A DNA stretch of 64,000 bases from a virus. Positions 5,500-63,797 of the stretch are shown here, piece by piece. Within the stretch, counting starts at the first letter, position 1; each line of letters starts with the position of its first letter. The DNA lies in the IMG/VR virus record IMGVR_UViG_3300044641_007991, positions 10,281 through 74,280 of that record; one strand, written 5' to 3'. The position numbers and the translations under genes are program-made. The notes under the pieces are model-generated. The model saw only the letters and a program-made list of their open reading frames with translations, was not told the DNA's origin and ran no database searches.

Positions 5500-7244
5500 G
5501 AAAAGTTTTATTATCTCCATGGTTTTCGTTGGTAACTCTAGCATTAGTAATAGTGCTACGGGTTGCTGACCCTAGTTTCATAGAATCGATTCGACTTCGA
5601 TATTTCGACACAATTATAACAAGTCAGCAAGTTAAACCTTCTGAACAAATTCGTGTTGTTAATATTGATGATGAAACGATCAAACGCTATGGTCAATTCC
5701 CATTTCCGCGTGACAAATATGCTGAGATAATCCAGACATTATTTGACCATCAAGCTGGATTAGTTGTTTTTAACGTATTCATGCCAGAATCTGATAGGTT
5801 TGGAAAGGACAATGAACTCAAAAAAATTATTGACACCTATCCAGTTATCTTACCTGAAGTTGGGGTTAATGATTCTACTGCTAGTGTTGCCCCTAAAATT
5901 GGCGTATCCGAAATCGGTGAATCTGCCAGACCTTGGGCGCCACAGTACAAGGGAATACAATCTAACATCCCAGAATATCAGGGTGCAGCAGGCATTGGAG
6001 TCGTTAATACCCTCCCAGAAATTGATGGAGTCACCAGAAGAATACCCATGGTTGTATCAGCCACAGATACTCTCTACCCGTCCATCTCGATGGAAACGCT
6101 TAGAGTTGCAGCTGGAGACCCTAGCTTTCAAATTAAGTCTAATGAATCGGGGATCGAAGCAGTTAGAATCCCTCAGTTTGGAAAAATTGATACTGATGAA
6201 TTTGGAAGAATCTGGATCGATTGGTCGAACATACCGATGGAATATTCCTTCAATAGATTACCCGATAGTTTTGATGGTGGAATTGTTATTGTCGGGCTTA
6301 CTGGACGAGGACTCAATAATCCTGTCGCAACAGCTAGAGGGAACGTCTATCCGCATCAACTTCAATCTACGGTATTAGATACAATTTTAAAAGGTACTAA
6401 TATTTCTAGACCAGATTGGGCAACAGTTGTTGAATTATTATCAACATTATTATTGAGTATTGTTTCTATATTATTAGTGCGGTGGAAATATGGATTTATT
6501 CCTGTTATTACAGCTATTACCTCTATACATTTTGGTGTTAGTTATATTTTTAACAATTATCATTACCTTTTGGACGCTACGATTCCTGTTCTGGGCATTT
6601 TTCTGGTGTATGCTCATAGTTTCACTGTTAAATTTATTACTGAACTAAACGCTAAATTGCAAATTAAACGACAATTTGGAACTTATTTAAGTCCTGCATT
6701 GGTAGAAAAGTTGCAAAAAAATCCTGAGTTGTTAACTCTTGGTGGAGAATCTAGAGAATTGACAATTTATTTTTCTGATATTAGGTCATTTACAACGCTG
6801 TCTGAGCATTATAAAACTGATCCCATGGGGTTAACCAATTTAATAACCCGATATATGGATAAAATGTTACCTATTATAATGAAAAATGAAGGTACTGTTG
6901 GAAAACTTATTGGTGATGCTATTATGGCATGGTGGGGTGCTCCATTAGATGTAGAAAATCACGCATCAATGGCTATTAAAACTGCAAAAGAAATGGAAAT
7001 AGCATTAGCAGAATTAAATGAAGAATTAATATCTGAAGGTAAACCTCCATTACATGTTGGTGCTGGTATTAGTACTGGAACTGTATTTGTTGGTAATATG
7101 GGATCTTCTGAAAGATTTAGTTATGATATATTAGGGGATGAGGTTAATCTTGCAGCAAGATTAGAAGGACAAACTAAAGGATACGGAGTATCTTTAATAT
7201 TGAGTGAAAACGCATTAAATAGATTAAAGTTTGAAAATGTATAA
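5496..7244 (+). CDS. CHASE2-domain class III adenylate/guanylate cyclase, N-terminal fragment
   Basis: VVNIDDETI..YGQFPFPR (CHASE2), TM helices, FSDIRSFT, KLIGDAIMAWWGAP, GDEVNLAARLEG. Stops before the VKGK motif. Confidence 0.9.
   Translation: MRKVLLSPWFSLVTLALVIVLRVADPSFIESIRLRYFDTIITSQQVKPSEQIRVVNIDDETIKRYGQFPFPRDKYAEIIQTLFDHQAGLVVFNVFMPESDRFGKDNELKKIIDTYPVILPEVGVNDSTASVAPKIGVSEIGESARPWAPQYKGIQSNIPEYQGAAGIGVVNTLPEIDGVTRRIPMVVSATDTLYPSISMETLRVAAGDPSFQIKSNESGIEAVRIPQFGKIDTDEFGRIWIDWSNIPMEYSFNRLPDSFDGGIVIVGLTGRGLNNPVATARGNVYPHQLQSTVLDTILKGTNISRPDWATVVELLSTLLLSIVSILLVRWKYGFIPVITAITSIHFGVSYIFNNYHYLLDATIPVLGIFLVYAHSFTVKFITELNAKLQIKRQFGTYLSPALVEKLQKNPELLTLGGESRELTIYFSDIRSFTTLSEHYKTDPMGLTNLITRYMDKMLPIIMKNEGTVGKLIGDAIMAWWGAPLDVENHASMAIKTAKEMEIALAELNEELISEGKPPLHVGAGISTGTVFVGNMGSSERFSYDILGDEVNLAARLEGQTKGYGVSLILSENALNRLKFENV

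Positions 7245-8519: not shown

Positions 8520-8520
<1 letters not shown>
8490..8520. terminator. Bidirectional intrinsic terminator
   Basis: AAAAAAGGGAGC-CGAA-GCTCCCTTT between convergent genes (UUCG loop on the - strand). Confidence 0.85.
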
Positions 8521-10151
<1,631 letters not shown>

Positions 10152-11009: not shown

Positions 11010-11357
11010 GAAAACGGTTTATTCTGTTTCGAGGAAAACCGCAAAAACCCAACTATAATTTTAAGCTGCTAGAGCAGTAGAATTATAGAAAGCGTCGTTT
11101 TTAGCTTCGCCATTTACTTATTTTATGCTGATTACGTCAGTCATCTCTCGATTCTCCAGTGTTCTTTGATCTCAACGTCGAATCTGTTCACCCCCATCAG
11201 AAACACACTTAAACTGGTCCGGCAGAATTTTTTCATTCCAGTTCGTTTATGTGACCGTCGTCACTACTTAGCTGCGGCAAAAGTATGTTTCTGGTGGAGG
11301 TGGGGGAATAATGCTATCCCCGTCCGCCAAAACTATTATAACACCTTCAACGAATAC
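11010..11357 (-). ncRNA. ssrA: tmRNA, circularly permuted (two-piece)
   Basis: Acceptor piece ends ...CACCTCCACCA at 11292, upstream of the coding piece starting GGGGGTGAACAGATTCGAC at 11195. Acceptor stem has G3.U70. Tag ORF 11111-11061 = GEAKNDAFYNSTALAA*. Outer ends are approximate. Confidence 0.9.
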
Positions 11358-11615
11358 TTTAAAATCACACTGCATAAGGACATAACGGACTCAAACCGAG
11401 TTCTTTGATACTATCTTACCTTATCGAACCTGAACACCTAGTGTGATTTTAAAAAGAGCAATACATTTAACAGAAAGAGTGAGTCGTACCAATCTGCCAC
11501 CCAACAGAAACGTCAATATAACGGCATTGTCACTTTATCTAATAGACAGGGATATTTCCGGTTATATCATACGTCCCGTTCTCGCGATGCCCGAGGGTAA
11601 ATGTATTAAATTTAT

Positions 11616-20013: not shown

Positions 20014-21717
20014 TTAAACCTTGTCAGTAATAGCTCTAATTTCCGCCAATGTTGTTGTTTTAACTAATTGACTATCTTTAAATACAGTTTCTAAACAACC
20101 GTGGCGTTCTTGATCAACAGATACTTGATCAACTAATTTATAAACACCATCTGTTTGGGTAACCATTAATAACCCTTTAGCCGATTTCTTAATACCATTA
20201 TCAGTTTTTGGATCTTTAAAGATTTCTACACCTGCACCATTAATCTCAGCATAGGTAGATTTCATGGCCATACCGTGAGTATCTCTGGTAACATATTGGA
20301 AACTGAATGAACCAATACCCAGCACAACATTACTTGATGCAAAACCTTTTTGTTCTAATCTACGGAAAATTTCCTCAGCACGTTTGTATGTGATAGAATC
20401 ACCGTAAATAGCACCAATATGAGTATCTAATACTTTGTAACCGTTTTCAGTTAAAGTGCCACCGAAAATATCCCATAAACATTCAATTAAACCTTTTTGT
20501 TCAGGCGAAATCTCAACTTCTTCAAATTCAAGCACCCTACTGTTATCAACATAATAGTATTGTTTATCATAACGATTCCACTCAATTTCTACTTTAGCTT
20601 TATAATATTTGTCGCCAGCTTTATAAATTCTGGTTACAATATCTTCACCGCATTCGCCATGAGGAGTATCATTACGAATTTCGGATTCTATATCGTTTAA
20701 CATATAGTTTTTAATCGAATCCAAACAGTCAATAGCAACATATTTTGCCGGCACAACTGGAATATCAATACCACACAGAATTTCAACTGGATCACCAGAA
20801 TCTGGACGAATAATAACACGACCATCTCTAGCCATAATATCAGATTTTAATCGCACCAAATAATCGGTAATAACTTGCCAGAAATCCCATGTATCACTAA
20901 CAATAGATACCATACCGCTTGGATAAATTTCGGTAATTAATCGTTTATAAGTATCAAATTCATCTTCTTTAGTACCGCTGCACATAACACTGTGTTCTGT
21001 AGCAGGAACCGAAACGCCAACAATTTCTGTATCGCTATCAGCAAAATAATAATCCTCAGCCAAATCAATTGCTGGGATATTATCTGTACCATAAGCGCCA
21101 GCTGCTAATACAGCAAAACCAGACGATGCAGCTGCGTGGCGACCTGCCATACCGCGAAAACCAAAATCATGGAACTGATACCGAACAAACTCTTTATCGG
21201 CTCCAGTAAGCTCTGCATAACGCAAACCCAATTTCTTGTAAGCCATATAAGTTGTGGCTGATGTAATTGGTTGCCATAATTCAGCTGATAATACCGATTC
21301 TAACATATTAGTTACCCAGAAAAATTCTGGTTTAGTATTAACCACAGTTAACATTGGAACGCCATATGGAACCATAGAACCTTCTGGTAAGGCTTTAATC
21401 TCAATTGGTAAATAACCCAATTTATGCAGCGCACGAATATGATCTACATTAACCTTATAACCAACGATATTTGAAACGCGACGTTGATATGAATTAACCA
21501 CGCGATCAATTGATCGAGTAAAGAATGAATAATCCCAATCTTCAATCAAGTAATCTAAGATAAAATGTTGTAGACCAACAAAACAAATACCATCGGTTGG
21601 TACGTTTTGATTTTTACCTGAACGAGCGGTAAAGTTAGAATAAATTTTAGTTGTACCAGGAGCATACTGATCTTTATGGTTTACTTTATAGCTGTCTTTT
21701 TGGTGTAATGCGCTCAT
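20014..21717 (-). CDS. Nicotinamide phosphoribosyltransferase-family protein (NadV/Namat-like)
   Basis: DSYKVNH, HDFGFRG, VPATEHSVM, SIVSDTWD, IRPDSGDP, IYGDSIT, KDPKTD..KKSAKG. Confidence 0.93.
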   Translation of the reverse strand: MSALHQKDSYKVNHKDQYAPGTTKIYSNFTARSGKNQNVPTDGICFVGLQHFILDYLIEDWDYSFFTRSIDRVVNSYQRRVSNIVGYKVNVDHIRALHKLGYLPIEIKALPEGSMVPYGVPMLTVVNTKPEFFWVTNMLESVLSAELWQPITSATTYMAYKKLGLRYAELTGADKEFVRYQFHDFGFRGMAGRHAAASSGFAVLAAGAYGTDNIPAIDLAEDYYFADSDTEIVGVSVPATEHSVMCSGTKEDEFDTYKRLITEIYPSGMVSIVSDTWDFWQVITDYLVRLKSDIMARDGRVIIRPDSGDPVEILCGIDIPVVPAKYVAIDCLDSIKNYMLNDIESEIRNDTPHGECGEDIVTRIYKAGDKYYKAKVEIEWNRYDKQYYYVDNSRVLEFEEVEISPEQKGLIECLWDIFGGTLTENGYKVLDTHIGAIYGDSITYKRAEEIFRRLEQKGFASSNVVLGIGSFSFQYVTRDTHGMAMKSTYAEINGAGVEIFKDPKTDNGIKKSAKGLLMVTQTDGVYKLVDQVSVDQERHGCLETVFKDSQLVKTTTLAEIRAITDKV

Positions 21718-25024: not shown

Positions 25025-25125
25025 TATAAATAAAGTATAGATTAAAAATGTCTATACAACACAAAAAAAGCCAATCGCGATACTGGTAATATCCATTGGC
25101 ACTAATACTAATCAGGAGTATCAGC
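25025..25125 (+). promoter_or_regulatory. Late promoter plus conserved HEG leader RNA, copy E
   Basis: TATAAATA 25025-25032; GCCAAT-CGC-GATA-loop-TATC-C-ATTGGC-ACTAATACT-AATCAGG-AGTATCAGC-ATG. Confidence 0.8.
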
Positions 25126-46879: not shown

Positions 46880-46954
46880 AGATCTCTCCTCAGTTCAAAG
46901 TATAGATTCATTATACGCTTTTTTGGTTGGAGAGTCAAGCACTTTTTAAAAAAT

Positions 46955-50252: not shown

Positions 50253-50347
50253 TATTATCTCCAGTAACAGAGTCAACCCCAGCGGTCAACCTATAGATCA
50301 ATTTTACACGTTTCTGTCTAGCATGTCAAGCACTTTTTACAATTTTT

Positions 50348-50734
50348 TTAGGATCCGTATTTTTCCCGTAACCTAGCATATTCAGCTCGTTCTGCAGCCT
50401 CCTCTACAGCTTGCTTAGCGAGTTTTTTCTCTAACTTAGCCAAACGTAACCGTTCTGATTTTTCGAGCTGCTCTCGCTCGCGTTCTAGTCTAGCAGAGTA
50501 TTCCTCATCCGTTTCTAGTCTATACAAAATCAAAGATAAATTATATCCGCCATCATAACCATAATTATTTCTATAAATTTCATGACGAGTATGATACTCT
50601 CGGATATATTTTTCTTTAATATCAGCAATATTTTTAGCAATACGGCACAAAAATTCATCTAGTGTTTCATCAGATTCTGGGGATAAATCATCAGTAATGT
50701 CAATGTATTCATCATATAGTACTTCTTGTTTCAT
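50348..50734 (-). CDS. Hypothetical protein (R.ETD.EY.AR family)
   Basis: GYDGG..YRLETDEEYSARLE..ERAEY.RL..KY. Confidence 0.7.
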   Translation of the reverse strand: MKQEVLYDEYIDITDDLSPESDETLDEFLCRIAKNIADIKEKYIREYHTRHEIYRNNYGYDGGYNLSLILYRLETDEEYSARLEREREQLEKSERLRLAKLEKKLAKQAVEEAAERAEYARLREKYGS

Positions 50735-51050
50735 AAATTAATCCAGTAAATATGGTGCAATTTCTAAGACAACCGGTTCTGATTCAAATTCGTGAATTTC
50801 GCAAGATTTATAAATTTTCCATTGCGCTTGACATCTATATTTTGATTGACGTTTTACACAATTAATATGAGCTTTTAATCCAGCTTCGGTCCAAGTTTTC
50901 CATTTTTAGTCCAAACATTATGTAATCCACCTGTGGAATATAATTTACTCACAGGATCATAAATTCTATAAACTTTCATAACCACCCTCATAACACCTAC
51001 ACAATAAAATAAAAGTGTCACATAATTCACATTTTTGTACGATAATCATA

Positions 51051-51269
51051 TTAATTCTCCAACACTATTCTACCAGCAAATCTACTAAAATCGCCCATTA
51101 CCCAATCTTTTCGGAATTGACCTAGATGATAAAGTTGGTCATTAGGTGTTGGGCTTATTGATACAACCATTCCTTGATTACGTTCAGTAAATAATACCAC
51201 AGGATAACCTGAATTAGCAACCCCAAGATATGGATAAATTGATGCATCGTATAATTTTGTACTTTTCAT
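51051..51269 (-). CDS. Hypothetical protein, paralog of 48825-49040
   Basis: IYPYLG..VVLF..GRIVLEN. Confidence 0.7.
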   Translation of the reverse strand: MKSTKLYDASIYPYLGVANSGYPVVLFTERNQGMVVSISPTPNDQLYHLGQFRKDWVMGDFSRFAGRIVLEN

Positions 51270-51437
51270 TATTTTCTCCGATTTAAACCTGGATTATAAA
51301 CCTGTGATTCTACCCAACAAGGGATTCCTAATGTACCAGCATAATTACATGCCTCATTATTTGTTGAGAATACTATAACAGCACCAGATGCATCGCGAAT
51401 AATTTCGTGAGTTTTTGTATTAACAAGATATAACATT

Positions 51438-51668
51438 TTAATTATCCATTCTGTGGTAAACAATACAAATCATTTGATTAGCGGATTTGCTAATTAAATC
51501 GAATCCGTCGGTAAAGGTTAATCCATAATCATAACAAAATTGGTTCTCAGCATATTCCTGAGCTGCACCATAATCCAGAAAACCATCATCTACGCCAGTT
51601 AAAAGGATATATGAATCTCTACCGTTAGATTGAATAATATCACCAATATGTGTATGGTTAATTTCCAT
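51438..51668 (-). CDS. Hypothetical protein
   Basis: GGAGAGA RBS after a cassette. Confidence 0.6.
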   Translation of the reverse strand: MEINHTHIGDIIQSNGRDSYILLTGVDDGFLDYGAAQEYAENQFCYDYGLTFTDGFDLISKSANQMICIVYHRMDN

Positions 51669-51874
51669 TTTTCTCTCCAAGAAGGGAGGTTGACCGCTGA
51701 GGGGTCAACCTATGATTCAATTTTACTAAAATCCCACCCAGAAGTCAAGCACTTCTTTCTCGCAGCAGGTTTTTCTAATTCAGTTTCTGTAAATAACACA
51801 CCATCGTGTCTACCCAACGCAATTACATCAAATACAGCACCAGCGGCTAATTGTTTAATCTTCTCGTTCATAAT

Positions 51875-52213
51875 CTAATCCTGTAATTTCGCTAAAGTTT
51901 CACGAGCTTGTTTAATTGCGCTATCAATTAAATCCTGAATTAAACCTGGATCATCTGTTAAAATATCTGAATAATCCGGATATAAATGTCCACCTGAATA
52001 TTCCGCACCTAATTCAATTCCGCAGCGTAACGCACGAACTCGTAACAAAAACCATTTTAAATTACCCGATTCAATATCAGCTAGAATCTGACCCATATTC
52101 TCACATTCAGCATATGTATCATTTGGCGGATAAATATCCCATGTATAATCAATAATGATATCGAAATTATCCTGAGTGCGGGTGGTTAAAACTGTGTACA
52201 TATCGTATGACAT
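51875..52213 (-). CDS. Hypothetical phage protein (I.SG.L.WF..RV..GIELG..Y.GG.LY)
   Basis: Motif and RBS. Confidence 0.7.
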   Translation of the reverse strand: MSYDMYTVLTTRTQDNFDIIIDYTWDIYPPNDTYAECENMGQILADIESGNLKWFLLRVRALRCGIELGAEYSGGHLYPDYSDILTDDPGLIQDLIDSAIKQARETLAKLQD

Positions 52214-52236
52214 ATTATATTTCTCCAGATTATATT

Positions 52237-52473
52237 TTAAGCACTTGTTGCTGTAGATTCTAAGATCTCATCAATTCTTCTCATAACAGCGTATTCGTAC
52301 CATTCTGCTCTAAATAAATCTCCAAAGAATTTAATTGCCAATAAACGATTTTGTCTGTAAACATATAATAATGTTTCTAAGCTCAATTGACCTTGCGAAT
52401 ATTCATATTCAGCACAGACAACATTTGAGATTAATGCATTAAACATTGATTGTCTTTTAGAATTTCTAGCCAT
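52237..52473 (-). CDS. Hypothetical protein
   Basis: GGAGAGA RBS after a cassette. Confidence 0.6.
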   Translation of the reverse strand: MARNSKRQSMFNALISNVVCAEYEYSQGQLSLETLLYVYRQNRLLAIKFFGDLFRAEWYEYAVMRRIDEILESTATSA

Positions 52474-52649
52474 TGCTCTCTCCAGTAATCTTCGATAAGG
52501 GTTGGTCAGGGAACCGTTCCCCAACCTATAGATCAATTTTACTCTAGACCGAGACTAATGTCAAGCACTTTTTTAAAATTTCAAAAAATTTTTACTCGTG
52601 CTAGCAGCGCGTTTTGGTAGGAGCGGGGGAATGGTATTAAAAAACGATT

Positions 52650-53155
52650 ATCGAGGCGCTCGCAAGAGCTAGAGCAGGAAAATAGACCTGCAGGGTACAA
52701 ACAGCAGGTCAGATGCCTTAGGAGAGCATAAACTAGAAGGACTCAACCTAAATGAGGAGAGAGTTCATTTAGGGAGTCCCGTATCAACCCTAGAGCCGGA
52801 GAGAGGAGGCTCTAGAGTCAGAATAGGGAGCTCAACGCGATTCGGCTGGAGAGTAACCTAATCGCGGAGCTAAAACGGTGCTAGCAAGAGGGAGAGAGCT
52901 CTAAGCGCCAGCACCGGAATAAGGTTTGGGCTTATTGTAAAGAATAAGCCCGATAATAACCATTTATCGTAAAGAAAATAAATGGTCTCAGTATGGCGGC
53001 CATATTGCAGTATGCATACTGGAGTAGAATTAGGTTGCTCAACTGAATATACCAATTAAAAACGCATGAAATTCGCAGTAACTTGTATTTTATAGGTTTG
53101 GTATATTCAGGAGCATACAGTCTATTAAGGTTGGGAGAGAGTCAACCTTAACGAG
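52650..53155 (+). ncRNA. Candidate multi-hairpin RNA with GGAGAG loops
   Basis: About 12 consecutive hairpins, six with GGAGAG(AG) in the loop; no credible ORF. Strand inferred from G.U pairing, a GCAA tetraloop and AA bulges. Confidence 0.7.
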
Positions 53156-53162
53156 TGTTCAA

Positions 53163-53579
53163 TTAAACCCAATCTATAGATCGCTTTACAGATAATCTAT
53201 ATTCACAATCCGGTCCTTCTTGGTATTGTTCAATATCAGAATAATCCTCACCCATACGGATATATTCAACATTTAAGTTTAATCTTAAAGCGCAGTGAAT
53301 CATGTGATTAAAGAAATCAGCACCAGATGTAATTTTTAACCAATAATCACCCCATCTAATGCTTTCACCGATAAATAAGAATTCATAACCATATTCTTCA
53401 GAGGTAAAAAATACATCTTTATTGAGAGTGATGTTATTTGATTTACATTCTAGAGCTAAGATTTCATTTTGAATATCCTGAGATAATGAATCAAAGGTAT
53501 TGGAATATAATTCACCAAACTCAAGCATTAAATCCTGATCACCATAAATTCTAATTGCAACATCTGAACGATAACTCAT
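53163..53579 (-). CDS. Conserved phage protein (MSYRSDVAI...EYIRMGED..DIE)
   Basis: Motif. Confidence 0.75.
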   Translation of the reverse strand: MSYRSDVAIRIYGDQDLMLEFGELYSNTFDSLSQDIQNEILALECKSNNITLNKDVFFTSEEYGYEFLFIGESIRWGDYWLKITSGADFFNHMIHCALRLNLNVEYIRMGEDYSDIEQYQEGPDCEYRLSVKRSIDWV

Positions 53580-54003
53580 ATTAACGATCTCTAAGTAATT
53601 TAGCAAGCATGTGCATTGCTACAATTGTTGCTGCAATAATCATAATACTAAAACAGAATCCATATACTGTTAAAATTAAATCATTAGTACACATATTAAT
53701 TACCCCAGAACAACTAATTTAATTGACATAACAACAACAGTCATTGTTACACAAATTGCCAATACTGATACACAACTCATGGTGATTTTAATAAAAATAT
53801 TTTCGTTCATATTATTTCTCCGGAACCGCAGTTAATACACAGTGTTGAGATCTAGTTAGATTTAATTCACATTGTGCGATAATAGGTAAATCAATAGTTT
53901 GATAACACCATAACCAACCTAGACCAAAACACGCAGCAGCAATAAGTACAGCAAATAATGTAAACGCTTGATTATCTGATATATTAATCATATTATTATC
54001 TCC

Positions 54004-54972
54004 TTAGCGTTTAATCATTACAGAGTTAGCCAAAGTAATCCATTTATCTGGGCTGGCCAAATATAATACAGCTAATTTCTCAACAGTTCTTAGGCTCAAT
54101 TCTTTTAAACGATCAACATTCTCGGTTAAATATTCCATTAATTTAGCTTCATCAGCTTTACTGATACCACGGTCACTAAGAATAGATGAACTCATAACAA
54201 CCTGTTTAATTCTAGTCATTAACTCACGGTTGGTATTAATTTGTAAATCAAAGTAAATAGAACGAGATTCTAGAGCTTGCAAGTGTGGAGCTAATTTGTT
54301 ACCGCGTGAGATTAAATCATTAAAATTTAAATTGGTTAAGAAGATAATTGTGCCTTCATAATCAAAATAACGTGGAATTTGTTCGCCGTCTTCAGAGATA
54401 AATTCCTTTTCTGATAACCAAGCAATTCTACGAGTTTTAGTTAATTCTAACGCACCTTTTAATAGATTTAAGCCTACTTCATCTTGGAATACAGCATCAG
54501 CGTCATCAAATACAATTGTTTGACCTTCGAATCTATTTTCCCAGAGTAATTTAAAGATACCAGTTGGTTTAACATAACCTTTGATAAAAGTAAAATCAGA
54601 GTTAATATTTTCTTCTAGGGTTTGACGAACTGTATATGATTTACCAATACCAGCGTGACCGCTAACAACCATAGATTTGGTTTGACCGTCAGCCACGGAA
54701 TTAACTAAGATTTCTAGATTGTCATAGGTATCAGCAATTCTAGCGTCTAATTCTTCATCAGTTTCTACAACAACTGGAACCGCAGGAATATTGGTATCCA
54801 TTTGAGCCGAGAAATTAAATACACCGCGACTAACATTATTATTTGGATTGGTAATGTGTACAGGATATTTAACCTTAAATTTGGCAACCACATCATTTAC
54901 CTGACGACGGGTGATAGTCGCAGAGGTCATTAATTCAGGGAACATTTCTACAGCAGCAGTTTCAAAATTCAT
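54004..54972 (-). CDS. P-loop (AAA+-like) ATPase
   Basis: VVSGHAGIGKS, IVFDDAD, LNLLKGAL, IIFLTN, ALESRS, LSLR. Confidence 0.85.
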   Translation of the reverse strand: MNFETAAVEMFPELMTSATITRRQVNDVVAKFKVKYPVHITNPNNNVSRGVFNFSAQMDTNIPAVPVVVETDEELDARIADTYDNLEILVNSVADGQTKSMVVSGHAGIGKSYTVRQTLEENINSDFTFIKGYVKPTGIFKLLWENRFEGQTIVFDDADAVFQDEVGLNLLKGALELTKTRRIAWLSEKEFISEDGEQIPRYFDYEGTIIFLTNLNFNDLISRGNKLAPHLQALESRSIYFDLQINTNRELMTRIKQVVMSSSILSDRGISKADEAKLMEYLTENVDRLKELSLRTVEKLAVLYLASPDKWITLANSVMIKR

Positions 54973-55051
54973 TTTTCTCTCTCCAGAAGGATTCTTTCGG
55001 AACCCAGAAATTCAAAGTATACAGTTATTATATGTTATTTTTGTTATTAAG

Positions 55052-55216
55052 TCAAGCACTTTGTTGAACTTTTAACCATTGTGAAAACTCTTTGAAACTC
55101 CAATAACCAGTTTTGACCCACTCATATGCTTGTTTCTCTGAAACATTTAGCACATTACATACATTACAGACTTTATCAACCCACAACCATTCGCCATCAA
55201 ATTTTTCAAGTTTCAT
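55052..55216 (-). CDS. Small protein (KQAYEWVK.GYWSFKEF family)
   Basis: Paralog of 56473-56637. Confidence 0.7.
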   Translation of the reverse strand: MKLEKFDGEWLWVDKVCNVCNVLNVSEKQAYEWVKTGYWSFKEFSQWLKVQQSA

Positions 55217-55907
55217 TTTATCTCTCCTAATCAAATATAGACTCATTATACCTAAACAACATCAACAAGTCAAGCACTTTTTAGCAACTTTCATCACAGG
55301 GAGCACTACCACAAGTTTTACATTCTACCGGACTATAATAACAACCTCTCATTGCGGTGCCGTCATCATCCACATCTTCGCCGCAATCTGGGCATTGTTT
55401 ACATTTATAATCGTTAGGATAATCTTTCCATAAATTCCAACCATCGCAACAGCTCATTTTTTCTCTCCGTTTATTTAAGTATGACTCATTATACCGTTAT
55501 ACTGACTAGAAGTCAAACACTTTTAAAACACTTCTCAATTAAATACGGTAAACTCAACACCAACCAACTTACAACCAAAGCGCCAACGGTATACACCCAA
55601 TCAATTAAACTCATTTTTCTCTCCTAGTTGGTCAGGGACAACCCCCAGCGAGGCACGAGCCTCAACCTATAGATCAATTTTACTAAAATTAGAGCGGCAA
55701 GTCAGTCGGTAGACAACCTAGCACTTTTTTACGTGGATTTGTTAATTCTTGTTCTAGGTCCTGGATTTGTTCAGTGAGCTGTTGTACAGTTTTAACCGCC
55801 CATGGCTCACCACTCATTAAACTGCGCAGAGATTTTAATCTAGCGATATTATCTTGGATACTCATCATTGTAATTCCACCTTAATATTTTCCATTATGCA
55901 TTGTTTT

Positions 55908-56102
55908 TTATGAGAAGGTTTCATAATCAACAGTAATGAGTTCAGCAAATAAATCAATGTAAATAGAATGGCTGTTACACAATTGAATATTAACAGAATT
56001 TGCTTCGTGCAATTCCAAAGCTTGTGCAGCTTGATACAAAGCTGCAATTAACTTTGATCGATCAATTTTAACTTCTGTTTCTTCTAATAAAGTAACCAAC
56101 AT
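55908..56102 (-). CDS. Hypothetical protein
   Basis: GGAG RBS after a cassette. Confidence 0.6.
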   Translation of the reverse strand: MLVTLLEETEVKIDRSKLIAALYQAAQALELHEANSVNIQLCNSHSIYIDLFAELITVDYETFS

Positions 56103-56472
56103 AATAATTCTCCAATAAAACCAGTTAGGATCAATTCCCAACCTATAGATCAATTTTACTCTAGTACGATTAACAAGTCAAGCACTTTTTAAAAAAGATA
56201 TAATAAAAATTAAGCTCGGGGATAACACACCCACAGATAAAACACCAGCAACGATCAACTCCATAATCACCTACAGTTAGATTCTATCATCCATTATCAA
56301 TACCCCAATAAAAAGCCAGAGAAAACTACAGTTAATACAACGACAACAAATACAGCTTGCAATACATTAAATACAACAGTCATTTTATTCTCCTAATATC
56401 AGTTAGGGACAATTCCCAGCGAGGCACGAGCCTCAACCTCAAGATCAATTGTACTAAAATCAGCCTAGAAAG

Positions 56473-56637
56473 TCAAGCACTTTCATTTTTCCAGCGAGAA
56501 AATTCTTTAAAAGACCAATAACCAGATTTTACCCACTCATAAGCCTGTTTGTCGGTAATAACATCAGCGATTAAATCATAGACCATACCGTTTTTATCAA
56601 CCCAATCCCATTTGCCCCAAATCTTTTTTAATTTCAT
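56473..56637 (-). CDS. Small protein (KQAYEWVK.GYWSFKEF family), not in the ORF track
   Basis: MKLKKIWGKWDWVDK...KQAYEWVKSGYWSFKEFSRWKNESA*. Confidence 0.7.
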   Translation of the reverse strand: MKLKKIWGKWDWVDKNGMVYDLIADVITDKQAYEWVKSGYWSFKEFSRWKNESA

Positions 56638-57016
56638 CGTTGTTACCAATTATGTGGTACAAGTACAATCCAGCACGCGATTTCTACACCTAGCACAATT
56701 GTCATGGCATATGTATAATATTCGGTGATTTTGCATAATACAGCTGTCATTTGATTATTCCCAGATAAATTCAACAGATAAAAATACAGCAGCAGTCATT
56801 ATGGCAATTACAAATAATTCAATCATTTCTCTCTCCGGTTTAAGAATCTTGTTCTAGCAGCTTTAGATAATTTCAACCCACGGTACGCGATAGAAAATTT
56901 ACCAGCTTTAACACGAGCAATTTTACGACTTAACATTTTAACTCTCCTAATCAAGTATAGATTCAATAGAACAGAGTTCATTATACCTAAATTAGAAGGG
57001 CAAGTCAAGCACTTCT

Positions 57017-57316
57017 TTAACAACCCGACCAAGAAATACCTGAAAAATGACCTGAAATAACATTACCGCGAGAAAAATTCTTAGCAGGAGCTTTATAACT
57101 AGAAGCTTTTAAAATATCGCCTGCCTTAAATTTAGGATTATCCTTCATAACAATAAAAGAATGCACAGAAGAATCTTTGATAATTTTAATGTAAACTTTT
57201 CCAATTTCAATCCGAATAGTTAAGGGTTTTTCTTTAAAACCCATCATTAGATTCCAAGCAGCGTAATCTTCTTGTAAATAATTTACATACCAGTTTAACA
57301 TTTGGTCAGTAATCAT
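57017..57316 (-). CDS. Conserved phage protein (SVHSFI..F..GDILKASSYKAPAKN..RGN)
   Basis: Motif. Confidence 0.75.
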   Translation of the reverse strand: MITDQMLNWYVNYLQEDYAAWNLMMGFKEKPLTIRIEIGKVYIKIIKDSSVHSFIVMKDNPKFKAGDILKASSYKAPAKNFSRGNVISGHFSGISWSGC

Positions 57317-57378
57317 TTTATTCTCCAGTAAGGTTTATCAAGTATAGATTCAATAGAACAGAGTTCATTATACCTAAA

Positions 57379-57621
57379 TTAGAGTGACAAGTCAAGCACT
57401 TTTGTAAATTTATCAACAGTGAAGAAACTTAAACCATCAAACGAAATCGCATACACAGTACATTTTGTTGGTGTATCATTACCGTCTAAGCTAACAAAAT
57501 AATCTTTACTGTAAGTAGATTTAACTGTGTCAACCAGCGGTTTAGCACCACCGAAATCATATTCAACAGTCAAACCAACTACAGAATTAACATCACGCTT
57601 CATCATTTCTAATACAGTCAT
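57379..57621 (-). CDS. Hypothetical protein
   Basis: GGAGAGA RBS after a cassette. Confidence 0.6.
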   Translation of the reverse strand: MTVLEMMKRDVNSVVGLTVEYDFGGAKPLVDTVKSTYSKDYFVSLDGNDTPTKCTVYAISFDGLSFFTVDKFTKVLDLSL

Positions 57622-57724
57622 GGTTCTCTCCAGAATTAGCAGTTAGGACCAGTTCCCAACCTATAGATCAATTGTACTAAAACTAGAGTGACAAGTCAAG
57701 CACTTTTTAGCGCCAGCGATAAAT

Positions 57725-57925
<201 letters not shown>

Positions 57926-57926
57926 A

Positions 57927-58175
57927 TTATTCTCCAATAGTTTCAGCGATAACATCATTGATTAATGCATCAACACAAATCAATAATCGTTCAACAGTAA
58001 AATTCTCAACTGGTTCCCAAACATAGATATCTGGATTAATACCAGAGAAATCAACATCTAACATATCAAATTCAGAATCTAAATCCATTAATAAATCATA
58101 AACCTGTTGTTCAAAACCGCGAACACCACCAAAATATTGTCTAATTGCAACCTTAACTGCTGTAGAAACTTTCAT
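57927..58175 (-). CDS. Hypothetical protein
   Basis: GGAGAGA RBS after a cassette. Confidence 0.6.
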   Translation of the reverse strand: MKVSTAVKVAIRQYFGGVRGFEQQVYDLLMDLDSEFDMLDVDFSGINPDIYVWEPVENFTVERLLICVDALINDVIAETIGE

Positions 58176-58528
58176 ATTATTCTCTCCAAAAAGGGAGGTC
58201 AACCCCAGCGGTCAACCTCAACCTATAGATCAATTTTACTAAAAAGCAGGTCAGAAGTCAAGCACTTGTTCAATAAAAACCGCAACGCCGAAATCGCCTG
58301 CCTTGCGAGTAGACCAAGAACTCCCAACATAATCAATAGAGCAGCCTTGTTCTACACATTCTCTTGCGAAATCAATAGCTTCTTTAGCAAGTTCAAATAC
58401 AAATTCTTCTTTGACCATTTCTCTCTCCAGAGTAAGAGGTCAGGGAACCGCTCCCCAACCTATAGATCAATTTTACTAAAGACCAGCTTAGAAGTCAAGC
58501 ACTTTAGAGCGCCAGCGATAAATTATTT

Positions 58529-58789
58529 TTACTGTTCTAAAAATTCTCGCTGTTTTCTTTCGTGTTCTAGGTCAATATCCGCGCTGTCTAAGAGTATGTT
58601 CAAGGCTAATTTTTCCAAGGCTGTAGGACGATCTCCACACGCCACTCGGATATTCAACCGTTCTATTTCGTCGATACACTGCGCGATAAAATCAGCGTGG
58701 AACATCCCTAGACCATTAATGTGTAGCTGTACAGCAGGAGCAGTTCCCTGTGGTTTGAGAGCGGCTCGTAATCGGTTAATGATACTCAT
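58529..58789 (-). CDS. Hypothetical protein (locally higher GC)
   Basis: Likely start MSIINRL; start uncertain. Confidence 0.5.
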   Translation of the reverse strand: MSIINRLRAALKPQGTAPAVQLHINGLGMFHADFIAQCIDEIERLNIRVACGDRPTALEKLALNILLDSADIDLEHERKQREFLEQ

Positions 58790-59021
58790 GTTATTCACCG
58801 CCAGTTGCAGCCATGTGAACCCAGTATTCGGCTTCATCGGTAGCAGCTGTTCGTAGTTCGCAGACCCAATCCTCAAATTCGCTTAGAGTCATACGACCAT
58901 CACGGACTGCTTCAAATACATCAGAGCTGAACATTATTTCCATTTTTATCTCCTAATCAAATATAGATTCATAGAACAGAGTTCATTATACAGTTAACAG
59001 TGAGCCAAGTCAAGCACTTTT

Positions 59022-59297
59022 TTAATAATATTCTCTGCGAGTATCATCGGTGTCTAGGAAACGTGTTTCAAACGGTAACACAGCGCCAGCAGCGTCTACT
59101 CTAACACCTGGAAGTTGAGCGTCACACACCACTTCATTTTGGTTAAGGTATCTGAACCCATCATAGGCGCCAGCCTCAAATAACACTGTTTCTAATGCGA
59201 AACACATTCCACGTCTAACATCTGGGGCGCAGGTGCTGTGTTTCAGTGATGAGTTGATTTGGGATTTGAAAGCTTCGATATCAAATGTTTTTCTCAT
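59022..59297 (-). CDS. Conserved phage protein (R.GM..LE.VL..AG.Y.GFRYL..DDTRR.Y)
   Basis: Motif and RBS. Confidence 0.75.
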   Translation of the reverse strand: MRKTFDIEAFKSQINSSLKHSTCAPDVRRGMCFALETVLFEAGAYDGFRYLNQNEVVCDAQLPGVRVDAAGAVLPFETRFLDTDDTRREYY

Positions 59298-59405
59298 AAT
59301 ATTCTCTCCAGAAATTAGTTAAGAACCAGTTCCTCAACCTATGATTCAATTTTACTAAAAAGCAGGAGAGAAGTCAAGCACTTTTCACACAGTTATCTAA
59401 AAATT

Positions 59406-59591
59406 TTATCGTTCTGGAAAGAACTCAGCACCACCCACCATATTACCGTTAGAGTCACGCAACCCATAATTTAAGGTGTCTGGGGAGGCTGCGATTTTAT
59501 CAGCTAATTCCCGCAGGATTTTAGCCACCTCAGCTGCGCGGTTATCTTCAAAAGCTGTGTTGTCACATTCAATTTCTGCTACAAATAACAT
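59406..59591 (-). CDS. Conserved phage protein (DN.AF..EVA.ILR.LA..LRD.NGN.VG)
   Basis: Motif and RBS. Confidence 0.75.
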   Translation of the reverse strand: MLFVAEIECDNTAFEDNRAAEVAKILRELADKIAASPDTLNYGLRDSNGNMVGGAEFFPER

Positions 59592-59709
59592 AATAAACTC
59601 CAGGATAAAAAATAATATTGTTAGTAAAAACGGGATTAGAAAATTATCTCCAGAAAACTAATCCCATTTAATAGAGCACACGCCCATATTCAATTGCAAA
59701 ACTTAAAAT

Positions 59710-59819
59710 TATAAATACTGTTTGTCTTAGCATAAAAAATGCCATTCGCGATATGTCCAGTATCCAATGGCTCTAGACATTCTATCAATTAAAACTTACG
59801 AGGATTAACTATGTCCAGC
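59710..59819 (+). promoter_or_regulatory. Late promoter plus conserved HEG leader RNA, copy F
   Basis: TATAAATA 59710-59717; GCCATT-CGC-GATAT-loop-GTATC-C-AATGGC-TCTAGACAT...ATGTCCAGC. Confidence 0.8.
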
Positions 59820-60752
59820 ACAAATACTTATACTGAACGAAAATACTGCGTCTATATTACCCATTATTCGGGTAATGCACTATCAACAAAAACCGAATCA
59901 ACAATACCCCCATCAAATTACATCGGATCAACTTCTGTTGATAAAATCCATAATGGATATAAAGGATCTGTATCCTCCAAAAAATATAAAATTATCTGGG
60001 AAACAGAATTAAAAAATAACCCACATTTATTCTCTGTGGAAATTATTTCGTATCACGACACCAGACCAGAAGCAACCTACAAAGAATTACAATTACAACG
60101 AATATTCAACGTTGTAACGAATCCATTATTTGTTAATATGTCTTATGCTAAACCAAAAGGGTATTTCGGAGTCAGCAATTCTACACAAGTAACATTAATG
60201 AATTTAAATAGAGTTATAAACGGAACTCATCCATTCCAACAACAAGATTTTAAATTTAACCACTCAAATAGATTAAAAGAGTTAGCTGAGATGGGAACTC
60301 ATCCATTCCAACAACAAGAATTACGCGAACGGATATCTAAGATAACTTCTGAATTACAAATTATTAAAATTCAAAATGGAACTCACGTATTCCAGACAGA
60401 AAAACATAAACAGATAATATCTAAAACAACTACAAATAGAAATAAACAATTATCTGAAGAAGGATTACACCCAGCTCAAATATGGTCACAAAAAGGTATT
60501 AACCCGTTCCAATCAAAGGAACATAAACAAAAAACTTCCATTCGAATGCAAGAATCTAATCCTAGCAAATTATCGCATAATAAAGAAAAAACTTCTAAAA
60601 GAAGTAAAGGATTAATCAACGAAAAATGTAAAAGACCATTATATCTCGAGGTTAAAACCTTATGCGAAGAGAGACAAATTAAAAAACCTAAATTTTTGCA
60701 TATGAAATCTGACGAGTTTTTATTAACTTTCAAACAAAGTATTTTAGCTTAA
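59811..60752 (+). CDS. GIY-YIG-like homing endonuclease
   Basis: YCVYITHYSG..YIGSTS..GYKGSVSS..KELQLQ..N; GTHPFQ repeats; MKSDEFLL.FK tail shared with the HEG at 2846. Confidence 0.75.
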   Translation: MSSTNTYTERKYCVYITHYSGNALSTKTESTIPPSNYIGSTSVDKIHNGYKGSVSSKKYKIIWETELKNNPHLFSVEIISYHDTRPEATYKELQLQRIFNVVTNPLFVNMSYAKPKGYFGVSNSTQVTLMNLNRVINGTHPFQQQDFKFNHSNRLKELAEMGTHPFQQQELRERISKITSELQIIKIQNGTHVFQTEKHKQIISKTTTNRNKQLSEEGLHPAQIWSQKGINPFQSKEHKQKTSIRMQESNPSKLSHNKEKTSKRSKGLINEKCKRPLYLEVKTLCEERQIKKPKFLHMKSDEFLLTFKQSILA

Positions 60753-61028
60753 CACTTTCCCGTATTCTATACAGAATAATGGCATATTGTTAGCTTTATC
60801 GACGATGAGTAAATTATATCCGTCATCGTCGATAACTTTGACCCTACCTTTAGAATGTTCAGATAACAATCCCAACTCATTTCGTACAAATTTAATTGTT
60901 TGACGATCTGATTTAAATGATTCAAATTGTTCAACTGAGATTTCCGCCACAGTATTCCAATAATTCCATTCCCACCAACCATCAGTTTTAACTGCTGAGA
61001 TATTTAATACACGGATATTTTCTCTCAT
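60744..61028 (-). CDS. Hypothetical protein (W.WN.W..DDGYN..PLF.IEYG)
   Basis: Motif and RBS. Confidence 0.7.
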   Translation of the reverse strand: MRENIRVLNISAVKTDGWWEWNYWNTVAEISVEQFESFKSDRQTIKFVRNELGLLSEHSKGRVKVIDDDGYNLLIVDKANNMPLFCIEYGKVLS

Positions 61029-61036
61029 AATTATTC

Positions 61037-61243
61037 CTAGGCTGAATAAACTTCAATTAATACAAATTGTTCAGGATAAGTGTAATCGTTATCTCTATTC
61101 CAATCTCTTAAGAAGGCTTGCATTGCACCAATTGCTGCTTCTCGATATTTAAATCCACATTCAGAATAGAGTAATTCCATATCTTCAGTAATATCAAACA
61201 TTTGATTGTTATTGAACAATTTCCAATAATACCTGATTTGCAT
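61037..61243 (-). CDS. Hypothetical protein
   Basis: GAGG RBS. Confidence 0.6.
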   Translation of the reverse strand: MQIRYYWKLFNNNQMFDITEDMELLYSECGFKYREAAIGAMQAFLRDWNRDNDYTYPEQFVLIEVYSA

Positions 61244-61364
61244 AATTATTCCTCAGTAAATAAATCAAATACAGCGTCTAAGATTTTATCCATAAACAAT
61301 AATAAAACAGCACCGATCGGCATTGCAATTAATACTAATCCAGCTTCAGTTCCATTTAACATTA

Positions 61365-61562
61365 TTATTCTCCGGTGTGATATAAACCAGAGATATTAAA
61401 TTTTGGAGCATCACCGCCAGTCATATAGGTATTAGATGTTCTACCTCTAACTTGGTGTTTGATTTTAACCTTAGCAGCGGGGATTTCTTGAATCGCGTTA
61501 CCACGCAATACATAAGCCAAGGTATCGTTTAAGAGTTGAGCGCGGATTTCTTTTTTAGTCAT
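61365..61562 (-). CDS. Hypothetical protein
   Basis: GGAGAGA RBS after a cassette. Confidence 0.6.
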   Translation of the reverse strand: MTKKEIRAQLLNDTLAYVLRGNAIQEIPAAKVKIKHQVRGRTSNTYMTGGDAPKFNISGLYHTGE

Positions 61563-61690
61563 AATATTCTCTCCAATAATCTTCGATAAAAGGAGGTCAG
61601 GGACAACCCTCAACCTATAGATCAATTTTACTAAAAACCCACCTAGAAGTCAAGCACTTTTCAACTTTTTTTAGCGCCAGCGATAAAAAA

Positions 61691-62161
61691 TTAATAATCA
61701 GTTTCATATTGAGATTCATAATCATCATAATTATAATCATGGTCGTCTAAATAACCTTCGTCATATTCTTCATCATATCCAGTCTCAATTAGAATACCAC
61801 CAAAATTAAATTTACCATGTTGAGCTGTTACGGTAAAATCTTCTGCGAAATCAATTACATGACCACCATTTAAATTAGGTAATTCTGATTCAGCAATATT
61901 TTCTACAGCGATAATACCTAAACTGCCAGAATCAACACCATATAATCTACCAACATTATCATTAAATCTGCCATCACCATATGCTGTTGAAGCTAGGAAT
62001 ATTCTTTTATTTTGTACAGTTAATTCGCCTTCAACCATATCATCTTCAGCGAACATAATAGAACATAATTCGCTCCATTCTGGGTGACAGACGTAGCAGA
62101 GATCTCCCACATAATATTGGCCAGCAGGGAATTGAGCAGTGTAAAAAGTATCACGAGCCAT
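61691..62161 (-). CDS. Conserved phage protein (YYVGDLCYV..TAYGDG..YGVDSG.LG)
   Basis: Motif; acidic tail. Confidence 0.8.
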   Translation of the reverse strand: MARDTFYTAQFPAGQYYVGDLCYVCHPEWSELCSIMFAEDDMVEGELTVQNKRIFLASTAYGDGRFNDNVGRLYGVDSGSLGIIAVENIAESELPNLNGGHVIDFAEDFTVTAQHGKFNFGGILIETGYDEEYDEGYLDDHDYNYDDYESQYETDY

Positions 62162-62531
62162 TAGAATTCTCCAAATAATTATTGTTTAATATATTCAACG
62201 TTGTTTAAATCGTTGGCATCAATATGATATAAGTAACCATTAATATAAACTAGAGCACAATTCTCAGGAATTAATACAGTTTCAACTTCATATAGAGTTA
62301 CAGCTAGGAATTTTTCAATATTGCTCATTTTAAACTCACTTTAGGTAGTCAGGATCAGTTCCCAACCTATAGATCAATTTTACTAAAGATCGGGGGAGAA
62401 AGCAAGCACTTTTGAAAATTATTTTGCTCCTGTAGATCGCGATCCTGTACGTTCCTAGAACGGCAGCTGTCGATAGCTACCTAACCAACAGCGCTGTAGA
62501 GGAGTTTTGCGATTGCAAGTTATTGATTTTA

Positions 62532-63047
62532 TTAGCCGACTAAACGGAATTTACAGCCCAGCAACGATTCTACCTCAGCAAACGTTAAATCGCGGATTTC
62601 CGGTTCGGTAGTTTCAATTGGATCTAATTGATCCGTTGGATCTAATTCTGTTAGATATTCAGTATATTCCGCTCTAGCATTTAATAAATACCAGCGATTA
62701 TGTTCAATAGAATAAAAATAATCATATTCCTCTGTAGAACGTTCTCGTGTAAATACTGTCCAATTGTTAAATACTCTGGCTGCAGTATTAGATTCACCGC
62801 GATCCCTGCCGTAATATACACAGCAATTTTCTTCCGGATCTTTAAAAGAATGTGTACCAACAGGATTAATATAATCTCCTAGAGCACTTAAATCACCATG
62901 TGAGATTAATTCCTGAGCTAATTCCGGTGTGGAATAGAATTGTTTGAGTATTCTACCATTATGTTCCGGATATGAATCCCAATGGGTATAGATTTGTTTA
63001 ATAGTTCCGTTAGGATATTGTACAGCAATTGTACCACGTGTAGCCAT
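62532..63047 (-). CDS. Conserved phage protein (MATRG.I..IYTHWDSYP..NG.IL..YYGRDRGE)
   Basis: Motif. Confidence 0.8.
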   Translation of the reverse strand: MATRGTIAVQYPNGTIKQIYTHWDSYPEHNGRILKQFYSTPELAQELISHGDLSALGDYINPVGTHSFKDPEENCCVYYGRDRGESNTAARVFNNWTVFTRERSTEEYDYFYSIEHNRWYLLNARAEYTEYLTELDPTDQLDPIETTEPEIRDLTFAEVESLLGCKFRLVG

Positions 63048-63060
63048 AAATTATTTCCTA

Positions 63061-63354
63061 TTAAAATTTTGAAAATAATGTTTTTGCTTGTTGTTTGAGT
63101 AACTCTTTGAGTATTCTATTAACTTTTGGCCAGAGACGGATTTTATCAAAAATCCCAAAATTACCCAGATATCTAGATTCATCATAGAAATTACAATACC
63201 AGAATCCACCAGCTGTCCAAATCTTAATACTAGTATTTGTTTCTTTAATCCAAAACGCACGACCGCTTAGTTGGCTAATTCCGGATATTACCCAGTTATC
63301 TGAATTATCTAACAATTGATTAATTTTGTTGAATGTAATTTTATCTAAACTCAT
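63061..63354 (-). CDS. Hypothetical protein
   Basis: AAGGAG RBS. Confidence 0.6.
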   Translation of the reverse strand: MSLDKITFNKINQLLDNSDNWVISGISQLSGRAFWIKETNTSIKIWTAGGFWYCNFYDESRYLGNFGIFDKIRLWPKVNRILKELLKQQAKTLFSKF

Positions 63355-63797
63355 TAGAAGATCTCCTTAACAATAATATCGTCTTCGTATAAATCATAAC
63401 CATTTGCTTCAACAGTATCACAGAGAATATCGTTATATTCGTCATAATAGTCAGCAACAAATGAATCAATAAACTCAACTTCCGTAGAATTTTCTTTTCT
63501 AATATAAATACCATATTTCATTTTTTCTCTCCAGAAAATTTAATTTATAACTTATTTTACTAAAATTTTAAGCTAAGGTCAAGCACTTTTTTAAAACCGT
63601 TTAACCTTAACTTCAGGATCAATTTTACTAAAAAGCGGGGTTGAAGTCAAGCACTTTTTACGCAGTTACCTAAAAAAGTTCTACGAAAGTGCTTGATTTC
63701 TTGTGTGAAAAGGAGTAGAACTGTGAACAGTTCAGAGAGCTCAATATAACGACTTGAATATTCTAGAATGGTTAAACATTCCTTCGGGATTAATCCT

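Follow-up and report, generated by a model that had tools for sequence, protein, structure and literature searches.

What role might be played by a run of adjacent hairpins that display, in six of their loops, the Shine-Dalgarno (SD) sequence of the genes around them or, when read on the other strand, the complement of that sequence? The question is raised by an element of ~506 nt, termed here the array, at positions 52650-53155 of a 64,000-nucleotide stretch of viral DNA (the window; bases 10281-74280 of the 74,280-base IMG/VR virus contig IMGVR_UViG_3300044641_007991, the estimated completeness of which is 29%). The public runs holding the contig are lake-water metagenomes, and one contig protein matches only Pelagibacter phage HTVC008M and Methylophilales phage Melnitz, at ~40% identity, both of which are T4-like Kyanoviridae; the phage is a T4-like one from lake water. 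The array is a real and conserved feature that is under selection, and it is neither a set of ordinary terminators, nor coding, nor represented in Rfam. Judged from its sequence, its most probable role is that of a regulatory RNA directed at the initiation of translation, the form in which minus-strand loops would pair with SDs (anti-SD) being likelier than a plus-strand form in which the loops would mimic them. The more specific proposal, i.e. that the array is a structured minus-strand non-coding RNA, the anti-SD loops of which target the early mRNAs driven by the phage's own cassettes, is in our judgement evenly poised between being right and being wrong.

A preliminary description of the region, made from the sequence alone, reported about 12 back-to-back hairpins; folding bears this out, with ~13 being found, all of which are assigned here to the minus strand, i.e. 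the strand favoured for the array as a whole. Six of them have loops with GGAGAG on the plus strand and its complement, or a close variant thereof, on the minus strand. H3 (52713-52729) is a short hairpin, the loop of which contains GGAGAG on the plus and CUCUCCUAAG on the minus strand. H4 (52739-52779) is bulged, with a CUC/GAG lower stem, a 2-nt bulge, a 9-bp upper stem and a loop reading GGAGAGAGU on the plus and ACUCUCUCC on the minus strand; the same pair of loop sequences is present in H12 (53125-53151), which has a 9-bp stem. H5 (52790-52815) has an 8-bp stem and a GGAGAGAGGA (plus) or UCCUCUCUCC (minus) loop, H6 (52829-52871) is bulged, with a lower-stem motif as in H4 and a minus-strand ACUCUCC loop, and H7 (52876-52916) has an 11-bp stem that forms on the minus strand only and presents CUCUCUCC in its minus-strand loop. 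All six occurrences of GGAGAG in the array are located in hairpin loops, as had been described, whereas 2000 shuffles gave 0.5 occurrences on average and never more than 4.

The other loop and bulge features given in the preliminary description, i.e. two GTAAAG loops, a GCAA tetraloop and a CTC-AA bulge in three hairpins, are likewise all present. H1 (52658-52669) has a 4-bp stem and a tetraloop that is GCAA on the plus and UUGC on the minus strand. H2 (52685-52710) has a 7-bp stem, extended to 9 bp by A52692>T in relatives, and a 12-nt loop without the motif. The GTAAAG loops are those of H8 (52928-52951; 9-bp stem) and H9 (52959-52986; 9-10-bp stem), that of H9 containing GTAAAG within it; H10a and H10b (52992-53004 and 53008-53021, together 52992-53021) are two small palindromic hairpins, and H11 (53036-53115) is a long bulged hairpin, the lower stem of which, 'CUC-AA-C...G-GAG', is common to H4, H6 and H11.

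The array folds far better than expected for its composition on either strand, i.e. with -178.8 kcal/mol (z = -8.3) for the plus and -173.7 kcal/mol (z = -10.0) for the minus strand, in each case against 150 dinucleotide shuffles. With 0.47-0.51, its GC content exceeds the mean of the contig (0.34), and its plus strand is purine-rich. It is non-coding, in that no frame is held between relatives, which differ by 1-nt and 13-nt indels, and a protein search with a minus-strand frame of 61 residues within the array gave no match. A scan of both strands for intrinsic terminators found none within the array, its only site being outside it, on the plus strand at 52597-52611, and no array hairpin is directly followed by a U-tract. 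A scan for tRNA and transfer-messenger RNA (tmRNA) genes found none in the array region, and an Rfam search of 52300-53400, at the gathering threshold and at E<=10, gave no relevant match, including to CsrB, CsrC or RsmX/Y/Z.

The genomic context of the array is that of the phage's early genes. The genes and early-cassette copies around it are all on the minus strand, in agreement with the preliminary description, according to which a plus-strand array would be antisense to all its neighbours. The early cassette is present in the contig as ~16 copies or part-copies, every one of them on the minus strand. It is made up of TTGAC[AT] and TAAAAT with a ~17-nt spacer between them, followed by the start region TGATCTATAGGTTG, which is conserved, by the leader hairpin, and by CTGGAGAGAG together with ATG. 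The cassette just downstream of the array (52476-52572, minus strand) has TTGACA at 52564-59, a 17-nt spacer, TAAAAT at 52541-36, a leader hairpin, the SD GGAGAGAG at 52483-76 and ATG at 52473. Such cassettes belong to the PeSL type, i.e. a sigma-70-like early promoter with a stem-loop, repeated through the hyperplastic region; because the cassette is repeated, many early genes share one extended SD. The window has 20 occurrences of GGAGAGA where 3.5 are expected, 15 of them being minus-strand copies that precede start codons by 8-12 nt, and 16 minus-strand genes between 43 and 64 kb carry a GGAGAG-type SD. These numbers confirm that GGAGAGA is, as had been proposed, the ribosome-binding site (RBS) of many of the surrounding early genes. 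The plus-strand GGAGAGAG motifs were considered as real ribosome-binding sites in their own right and rejected, no small open reading frame (ORF) with a start codon at RBS distance being found.

Cassette copies span 50287-63660 of the window on the minus strand, with examples at 52480-52572, 56137-56195, 58216-58273, 58444-58505 and 61571-61661, and TGCTTGA within the cassette resembles the T4 MotA box. GGAGAG or GGAGAA adjoins the -35 hexamer of three opposite-strand cassettes (at 46929, 59365 and 62395, plus strand), where the minus strand reads TTGACTCTCC or TTGACTTCTCTCC; CUCUCC-like sequence is thus present in some cassette spacers too.

On the minus strand the array starts 8 nt past the stop codon of a gene termed P0001 (53163-53579, minus strand; 138 residues) and ends ~85 nt before the next cassette, the -35 hexamer of which is at 52564. 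Because it is placed between the P0001 stop codon and this cassette, the array is regarded as the minus-strand tail of an early operon, i.e. as the 3' part of an early transcript, and the terminator scan found no terminator between the P0001 stop codon and the array.

In this setting, the sequences presented by the minus strand, i.e. ACUCUCUCC in H4 and H12, UCCUCUCUCC in H5, CUCUCUCC in H7, ACUCUCC in H6 and CUCUCCUAAG in H3, complement the cassette SD over 7-8 nt; the loops are exactly complementary to the GGAGAGAG/GGAGAGA SD in the cassette leader and to those of the 16 early genes. Predicted loop-leader duplexes have energies of -11 to -13 kcal/mol with leaders of the GGAGAG type (-18 kcal/mol at best) and of -7 to -8 kcal/mol with GGAGA[AT] leaders, compared with -2 to -5 kcal/mol for the non-motif loops of H2, H8 and H9.

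A mechanism can be proposed in which the array would be transcribed as the tail of the early operon, after the AAA-ATPase gene, small ORFs and P0001, and might be released by RNase E processing at its U-rich spacers. The six pyrimidine loops (CUCUCUCC or close variants) would then be displayed on hairpins with freely changeable stems, and kissing between loops and SDs by such a stable, multivalent RNA would compete with 30S binding, so turning down or timing the translation of cassette-driven early genes. T4-like phages shut off early translation by means of proteins, i.e. RegA and the SD-cutting RegB, and the array may be an RNA counterpart of their action in T4. We infer the strand, the existence of the transcript, its pairing and the effect of this pairing from sequence; a loop change from CUCUCUCC to GAGAGAGG would be expected to affect translation of an early-gene reporter.

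Conservation of the loops in relatives had been set beforehand as a test, and it was found. A 20-mer from the cassette retrieved five metagenome contigs, of which only one, L237 (8,183 nt; colinear with 52415-55280), spans the array. Identity between the window and L237 is 97.4% in the array, 97.4% in the AAA-ATPase gene, 90.2% in P0001 and 78% in the cassette leader. All 13 array differences are in non-motif loops, spacers or the inner part of H11, including the loop of H8, where GTAAAG reads GTCGAG; by contrast the robust stems (~45% of positions) and the six motif loops have no differences, and H4 is identical in the two.

A more divergent variant, seen when contigs from four public runs were compared with the region, is informative with respect to what is being conserved. 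In place of H7 it has a 9-bp stem that is unrelated to it and bears a GGAGAGAG(G) loop (with a loose end before 52917), and in place of the upper part of H11 (53044-53109) a likewise unrelated stem of 11-12 bp, bearing a GGAGAGAGU loop (joint 53043>53110), the 'CUC-AA-C...G-GAG' base of H11 being retained exactly. The variant H9 has a compensatory change, from T-A to A-T at the pair 52965/52980, and an AGAGGG-like loop. Thus three independent hairpin replacements or changes (H7, H11 and H9) retain a loop of the GGAGAGAG type. Because variants swap stems yet hold the loop, the loop on its hairpin is the feature under selection; as judged from these sequences, the selected object is a hairpin presenting the loop, with stems being interchangeable and hairpins gained or lost as modules. 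A 13-nt deletion in one variant takes out part of H10a/H10b. The part of the preliminary description that assigned the array a role at translation initiation, with the loops as the selected feature, is therefore well supported, since relatives turn over the stems and keep the loops. The bulged lower stem of H4, H6 and H11, which is kept despite the upper-stem swap, hints at a protein or nuclease contact.

Two more contigs have spurious ORFs (P0024 and P0025) that run across the array and indicate that H2-H4 are kept, followed by a divergent set of hairpins; the 'RRE' codons of these ORFs are consistent with another AGGAGAGAG loop, as judged from the protein letters only. Beyond these relatives, most searches were negative. 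A distant relative fragment of 44 kb, retrieved with the cassette 20-mer, lacks an array; the array, its 15-kb surroundings and P0001 gave no match when compared with GenBank phages by blastn and tblastn; no relatives of P0001, of P0002 or of the AAA protein were found in IMG/VR; and alignment of P0001 against GTDB genomes gave none. The H8 sequence has no match in IMG/VR or in metagenomes, a scan of IMG/VR for two or three GGAGAGAG motifs returned low-complexity or coding matches only, with no hairpin arrays, and the 12 matches of an H4-type module in an IMG/VR pattern scan are all unrelated. A lone long hairpin of the form 'CUC-AA-C ... GGAGAGAGU ... G-GAG' is present between two minus-strand genes in an unrelated IMG/VR phage (L251, 7410-7490); considered as a relative, it was set aside, being without an array or a sequence relationship and probably due to chance.

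If the array acts as RNA, the minus strand is probably the functional one, an estimate that spans both an anti-SD role and a purely structural one. This preference follows from the strand-informative pairs, the unpaired state of the motifs, the z-score and the gene and promoter context. The preliminary description held that G.U pairing favours the plus strand, which is not borne out. Within the array, plus-only wobbles are limited to the loop-closing pairs of H4 and H12, which when unpaired merely widen the loop, whereas minus-only wobbles are located inside the inner stem of H6 and within H7, with H7 and H9 each having a further one at the stem end; two positions in H7 are G.U on the minus strand and A.C on the plus strand. 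Similarly, a variant with G>A at 52948 has a G.U pair in H8 on the minus strand and a C.A mismatch on the plus strand. Folding measures point, slightly, in the same direction. The motif is more uniformly accessible on the minus strand, with the unpaired probability of CUCUCC being 0.97-1.0 in 5 of the 6 loops, whereas that of plus-strand GGAGAG is 0.62-1.0, and the minus-strand folding z-score is the stronger one (-10.0 against -8.3). The minus-strand spacers are U-rich (AAUUC, CUUAUUC, GUUUUA, UAUUUU) and RNase E-like, a weak resemblance read by eye.

Several points weigh against a minus-strand anti-SD RNA. The hairpin energies are near-symmetric (summed, -152 kcal/mol on the plus versus -147 kcal/mol on the minus strand), with H4, H8, H11 and H12 being slightly better on the plus and H6, H7 and H9 slightly better on the minus strand. 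Only a small number of pairs inform on strand, i.e. ~4 versus 2, together with one single-nucleotide polymorphism from a low-depth contig. The GCAA tetraloop of H1 favours the plus strand, as does the plus-only internal wobble of H0, a small plus-strand hairpin followed by TTTT at 52597-52615, between the array and the cassette. Scans at the array found neither a minus-strand promoter of its own nor a clear terminator. The only match in an RNA library is an unstranded contig of 186 nt (L237 genotype, run X21) that covers 52626-52812 only, i.e. 186 nt of a 2.2 kb region; it was found via an array query, may reflect DNA carry-over and is not counted as evidence for expression. Complementarity to the SD cannot in itself separate an anti-SD from an SD mimic, and silencing of early genes by an early RNA requires the extra assumption that a stable RNA accumulates while mRNAs decay.

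The principal reading in the preliminary description was a plus-strand RNA, the loops of which would mimic the phage SD GGAGAGAG and serve as a sponge or decoy for a CsrA/RsmA-type protein or the ribosome (the 30S anti-SD); a RegB-like SD-cutting nuclease is a further candidate for the titrated factor. Its attraction is that six GGA-containing loops resemble the CsrB/RsmZ design, and it accords with the GNRA tetraloop of H1 on the plus strand, the closing G.U pairs gained in H4 and H12, the slightly lower total minimum free energy of the plus strand, and a weak extended -10-like sequence, TGGTATTAA, seen by eye at ~52632-40, just before H1. The promoter scan, however, found no plus-strand promoter, as the preliminary description had itself remarked, and no terminator follows H12; the nearest upstream plus-strand late promoter, TATAAATA, is at 25025, no plus-strand gene is present between 26346 and 58107, and the 26 kb upstream of the array thus have neither a plus-strand gene nor TATAAATA. 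Transcripts arriving from the left would, moreover, meet H0 and its T-run, which look like a terminator and would halt readthrough before the array. The 74-kb contig, representing 29% of the genome, encodes no CsrA (PF02599), there is no CsrB/Rsm match in Rfam, H6 and H7 have internal A.C mismatches on the plus strand, and the H8 variant loses a pair there. The plus-strand sponge is hence unsupported beyond its GGA loops and we regard it as distinctly unlikely; what had been put forward as a second option, i.e. pairing of minus-strand CUCUCC loops with early RBSs, is the form that the context, the wobbles and the variant favour, to a degree that leaves it as readily wrong as right.

There are two further explanations. 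It may be that the array is a structural 3' end or insulator of the early operon, e.g. an exonuclease stop, a set of RNase III/E sites or a separator of units, in which case the loops would be without a sequence-specific role in trans. Its location at the end of an operon and directly upstream of the next early cassette is as expected for such a role, six of the ~13 hairpins are free of the motif, the bulged lower stem in three hairpins is a possible nuclease or protein site, and PeSL cassettes of T4-type phages are known to join promoters with terminator stem-loops (PMC2839356, PMC4122927). A structural tail nevertheless leaves unexplained why one motif of 6-8 nt recurs in six loops when 0.5 are expected, why that motif is identical to the early SD or its complement, and why replaced hairpins regain the same loop; since no hairpin has a U-tract, none is an intrinsic terminator. 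We consider this explanation fairly unlikely. An element acting as DNA, i.e. a replication origin, a single-stranded DNA hairpin signal or a hotspot of recombination arising from cassette-mediated shuffling, has in its favour the island of unusual GC content and purine bias, its location in a hyperplastic early region with module swaps (two adjoining ORFs are missing in L237), and a 14-nt near-repeat, CCAAYCTATAGATC, at 52521-34 and 53169-82. The right copy of the repeat, however, encodes the conserved C terminus of P0001 (KRSIDW) in all 21 relatives, for which reason the repeat was rejected as an insertion scar. Purifying selection on stems, a compensatory pair and a wobble-type variant are as expected of RNA, there are no repeated protein-binding boxes outside the loops, and T4-type origins, which consist of a promoter and an unwinding element, are not known to be hairpin arrays. 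The single-stranded DNA origin suggested in the preliminary description thus found no positive support, and a DNA-level role is highly improbable; what probability remains belongs to something other than these four readings.

The array belongs to none of the cuckoo/CcsR, RNAIII, LhrC or c4 families, which are its closest analogues. The nearest likeness is to the cuckoo RNAs (alpha-r14; Rfam RF02344), which include RSs0680a-d, i.e. CcsR1-4, of Rhodobacter and SmelC397/NfeR1 of Sinorhizobium, and which have neighbouring hairpins that vary in their stems and show a single anti-SD loop motif, and share a transcript with an upstream gene (PMC4615179). As in these clustered RNAs, the hairpins of the array are adjacent, differ greatly in their stems and have in common a single pyrimidine loop motif resembling an anti-SD; a small upstream gene is transcribed together with the CcsR cluster (PMC4615179, PMC8034643). 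The loop motif differs, being CUCUCUCC in the array and CCUCCUCCC in the cuckoo RNAs, as does the number of hairpins, i.e. ~13, six of them with the motif, compared with 2-4 per cuckoo RNA. Cuckoo RNAs are encoded on alphaproteobacterial chromosomes, whereas the array is phage-encoded and its loops match the phage's own early SD. Thus the architecture of variable-stem adjacent hairpins with a shared loop is that of the cuckoo family, but the CCUCCUCCC motif is absent, the RF02344 covariance model gave no match to the contig at E<=10, and the contig has no DUF1127 gene, i.e. no analogue of CcaF1.

In RNAIII and RsaE of Staphylococcus and LhrC1-5 of Listeria several loops carry UCCC, which pairs with the SDs of many mRNAs, and RNAIII is ~500 nt long with many hairpins. 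The likeness of the array to these small RNAs, with C- or CU-rich loops that pair with SDs, also rests on work on the cuckoo RNAs (PMC4615179), and extends, in the case of RNAIII, to a similar size. They are, however, bacterial genes, each having a promoter and a terminator of its own, and with no sequence or family relationship to the array, the proposed targets of which are the phage's own cassette leaders. Among phages, the c4 RNA of P1 and P7 is processed from the transcript that it regulates, and its loops pair around an RBS of the phage's own mRNA and block translation (PMC12197685). In contrast to the array, c4 is a single RNA, ~77 nt long, that has two specific loops and targets one operon (icd/ant), being neither multivalent nor aimed at a shared SD, and there is no homology between the two. 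CsrB, CsrC and RsmX-Z are multi-hairpin RNAs with GGA in many loops, as is the plus strand of the array, a resemblance of sequence only and one that is independent of strand. By contrast with these RNAs, the array has a long GGAGAGAG motif rather than A(N)GGA, its plus strand is not a transcription unit of its own, with neither promoter nor terminator, the contig is without CsrA, the base pairs lean to the minus strand, and Rfam gives no match. The cassette flanking the array is of the PeSL kind (PMC2839356, PMC4122927), in which T4-type phages combine promoters with terminator stem-loops; the array differs in having no promoter hexamers and in that its hairpins are unrelated to the cassette leader hairpin.

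Should the array prove to be an anti-SD-loop RNA, it would add a novel level to phage gene timing, would exceed all other arrays of its design in size, and would be a clear case in which a regulator and its target SD are both on mobile modules; an active plus strand would, by contrast, make it the first SD-mimic sponge from a phage. A more far-reaching possibility, which we offer tentatively, is that of a private SD/anti-SD code, in which mobile cassettes would give a set of early genes the extended SD GGAGAGAG and one RNA with six CUCUCUCC loops would silence, or protect, the set. Equally tentative is its corollary, an RNA-only global switch of early translation with modular hairpins, the loop of which would co-evolve with the cassette SD.

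Of the genes near the array, P0001 is also intact in L237, and lake metagenomes contain 20 proteins related to it, at 71-93% identity, the longest of the contigs concerned having 199,772 nt; the C terminus of P0001, CEYRLSVKRSIDW, is strictly conserved. The P0001 differences from L237 are distributed over the codon positions as 13, 12 and 12, an even spread that is unusual for a gene under purifying selection. An RNA-binding or RegA-like role for P0001 was considered and dropped, an Atlas feature score of 0.83 being the sole hint, with no Pfam match and with no PF01818 in the contig. Two small ORFs (37 and 36 residues; 53581-53810, minus strand) are absent from the otherwise colinear L237, which has a different ORF of 56 residues in their place, an example of module swapping beside the array.

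Elsewhere in the window, ARAGORN made no call at 11013-11403 (minus strand), where a permuted two-piece tmRNA gene of the alpha type is recognised by RF04321 (85.5 bits) and RF01849 (65.2 bits). The phage also encodes a CHASE2-adenylate/guanylate cyclase (5496-7244, plus strand), a GroEL-type chaperonin (8520-10139, minus strand) and a NAMPT-like nicotinamide phosphoribosyltransferase (20014-21717, minus strand).

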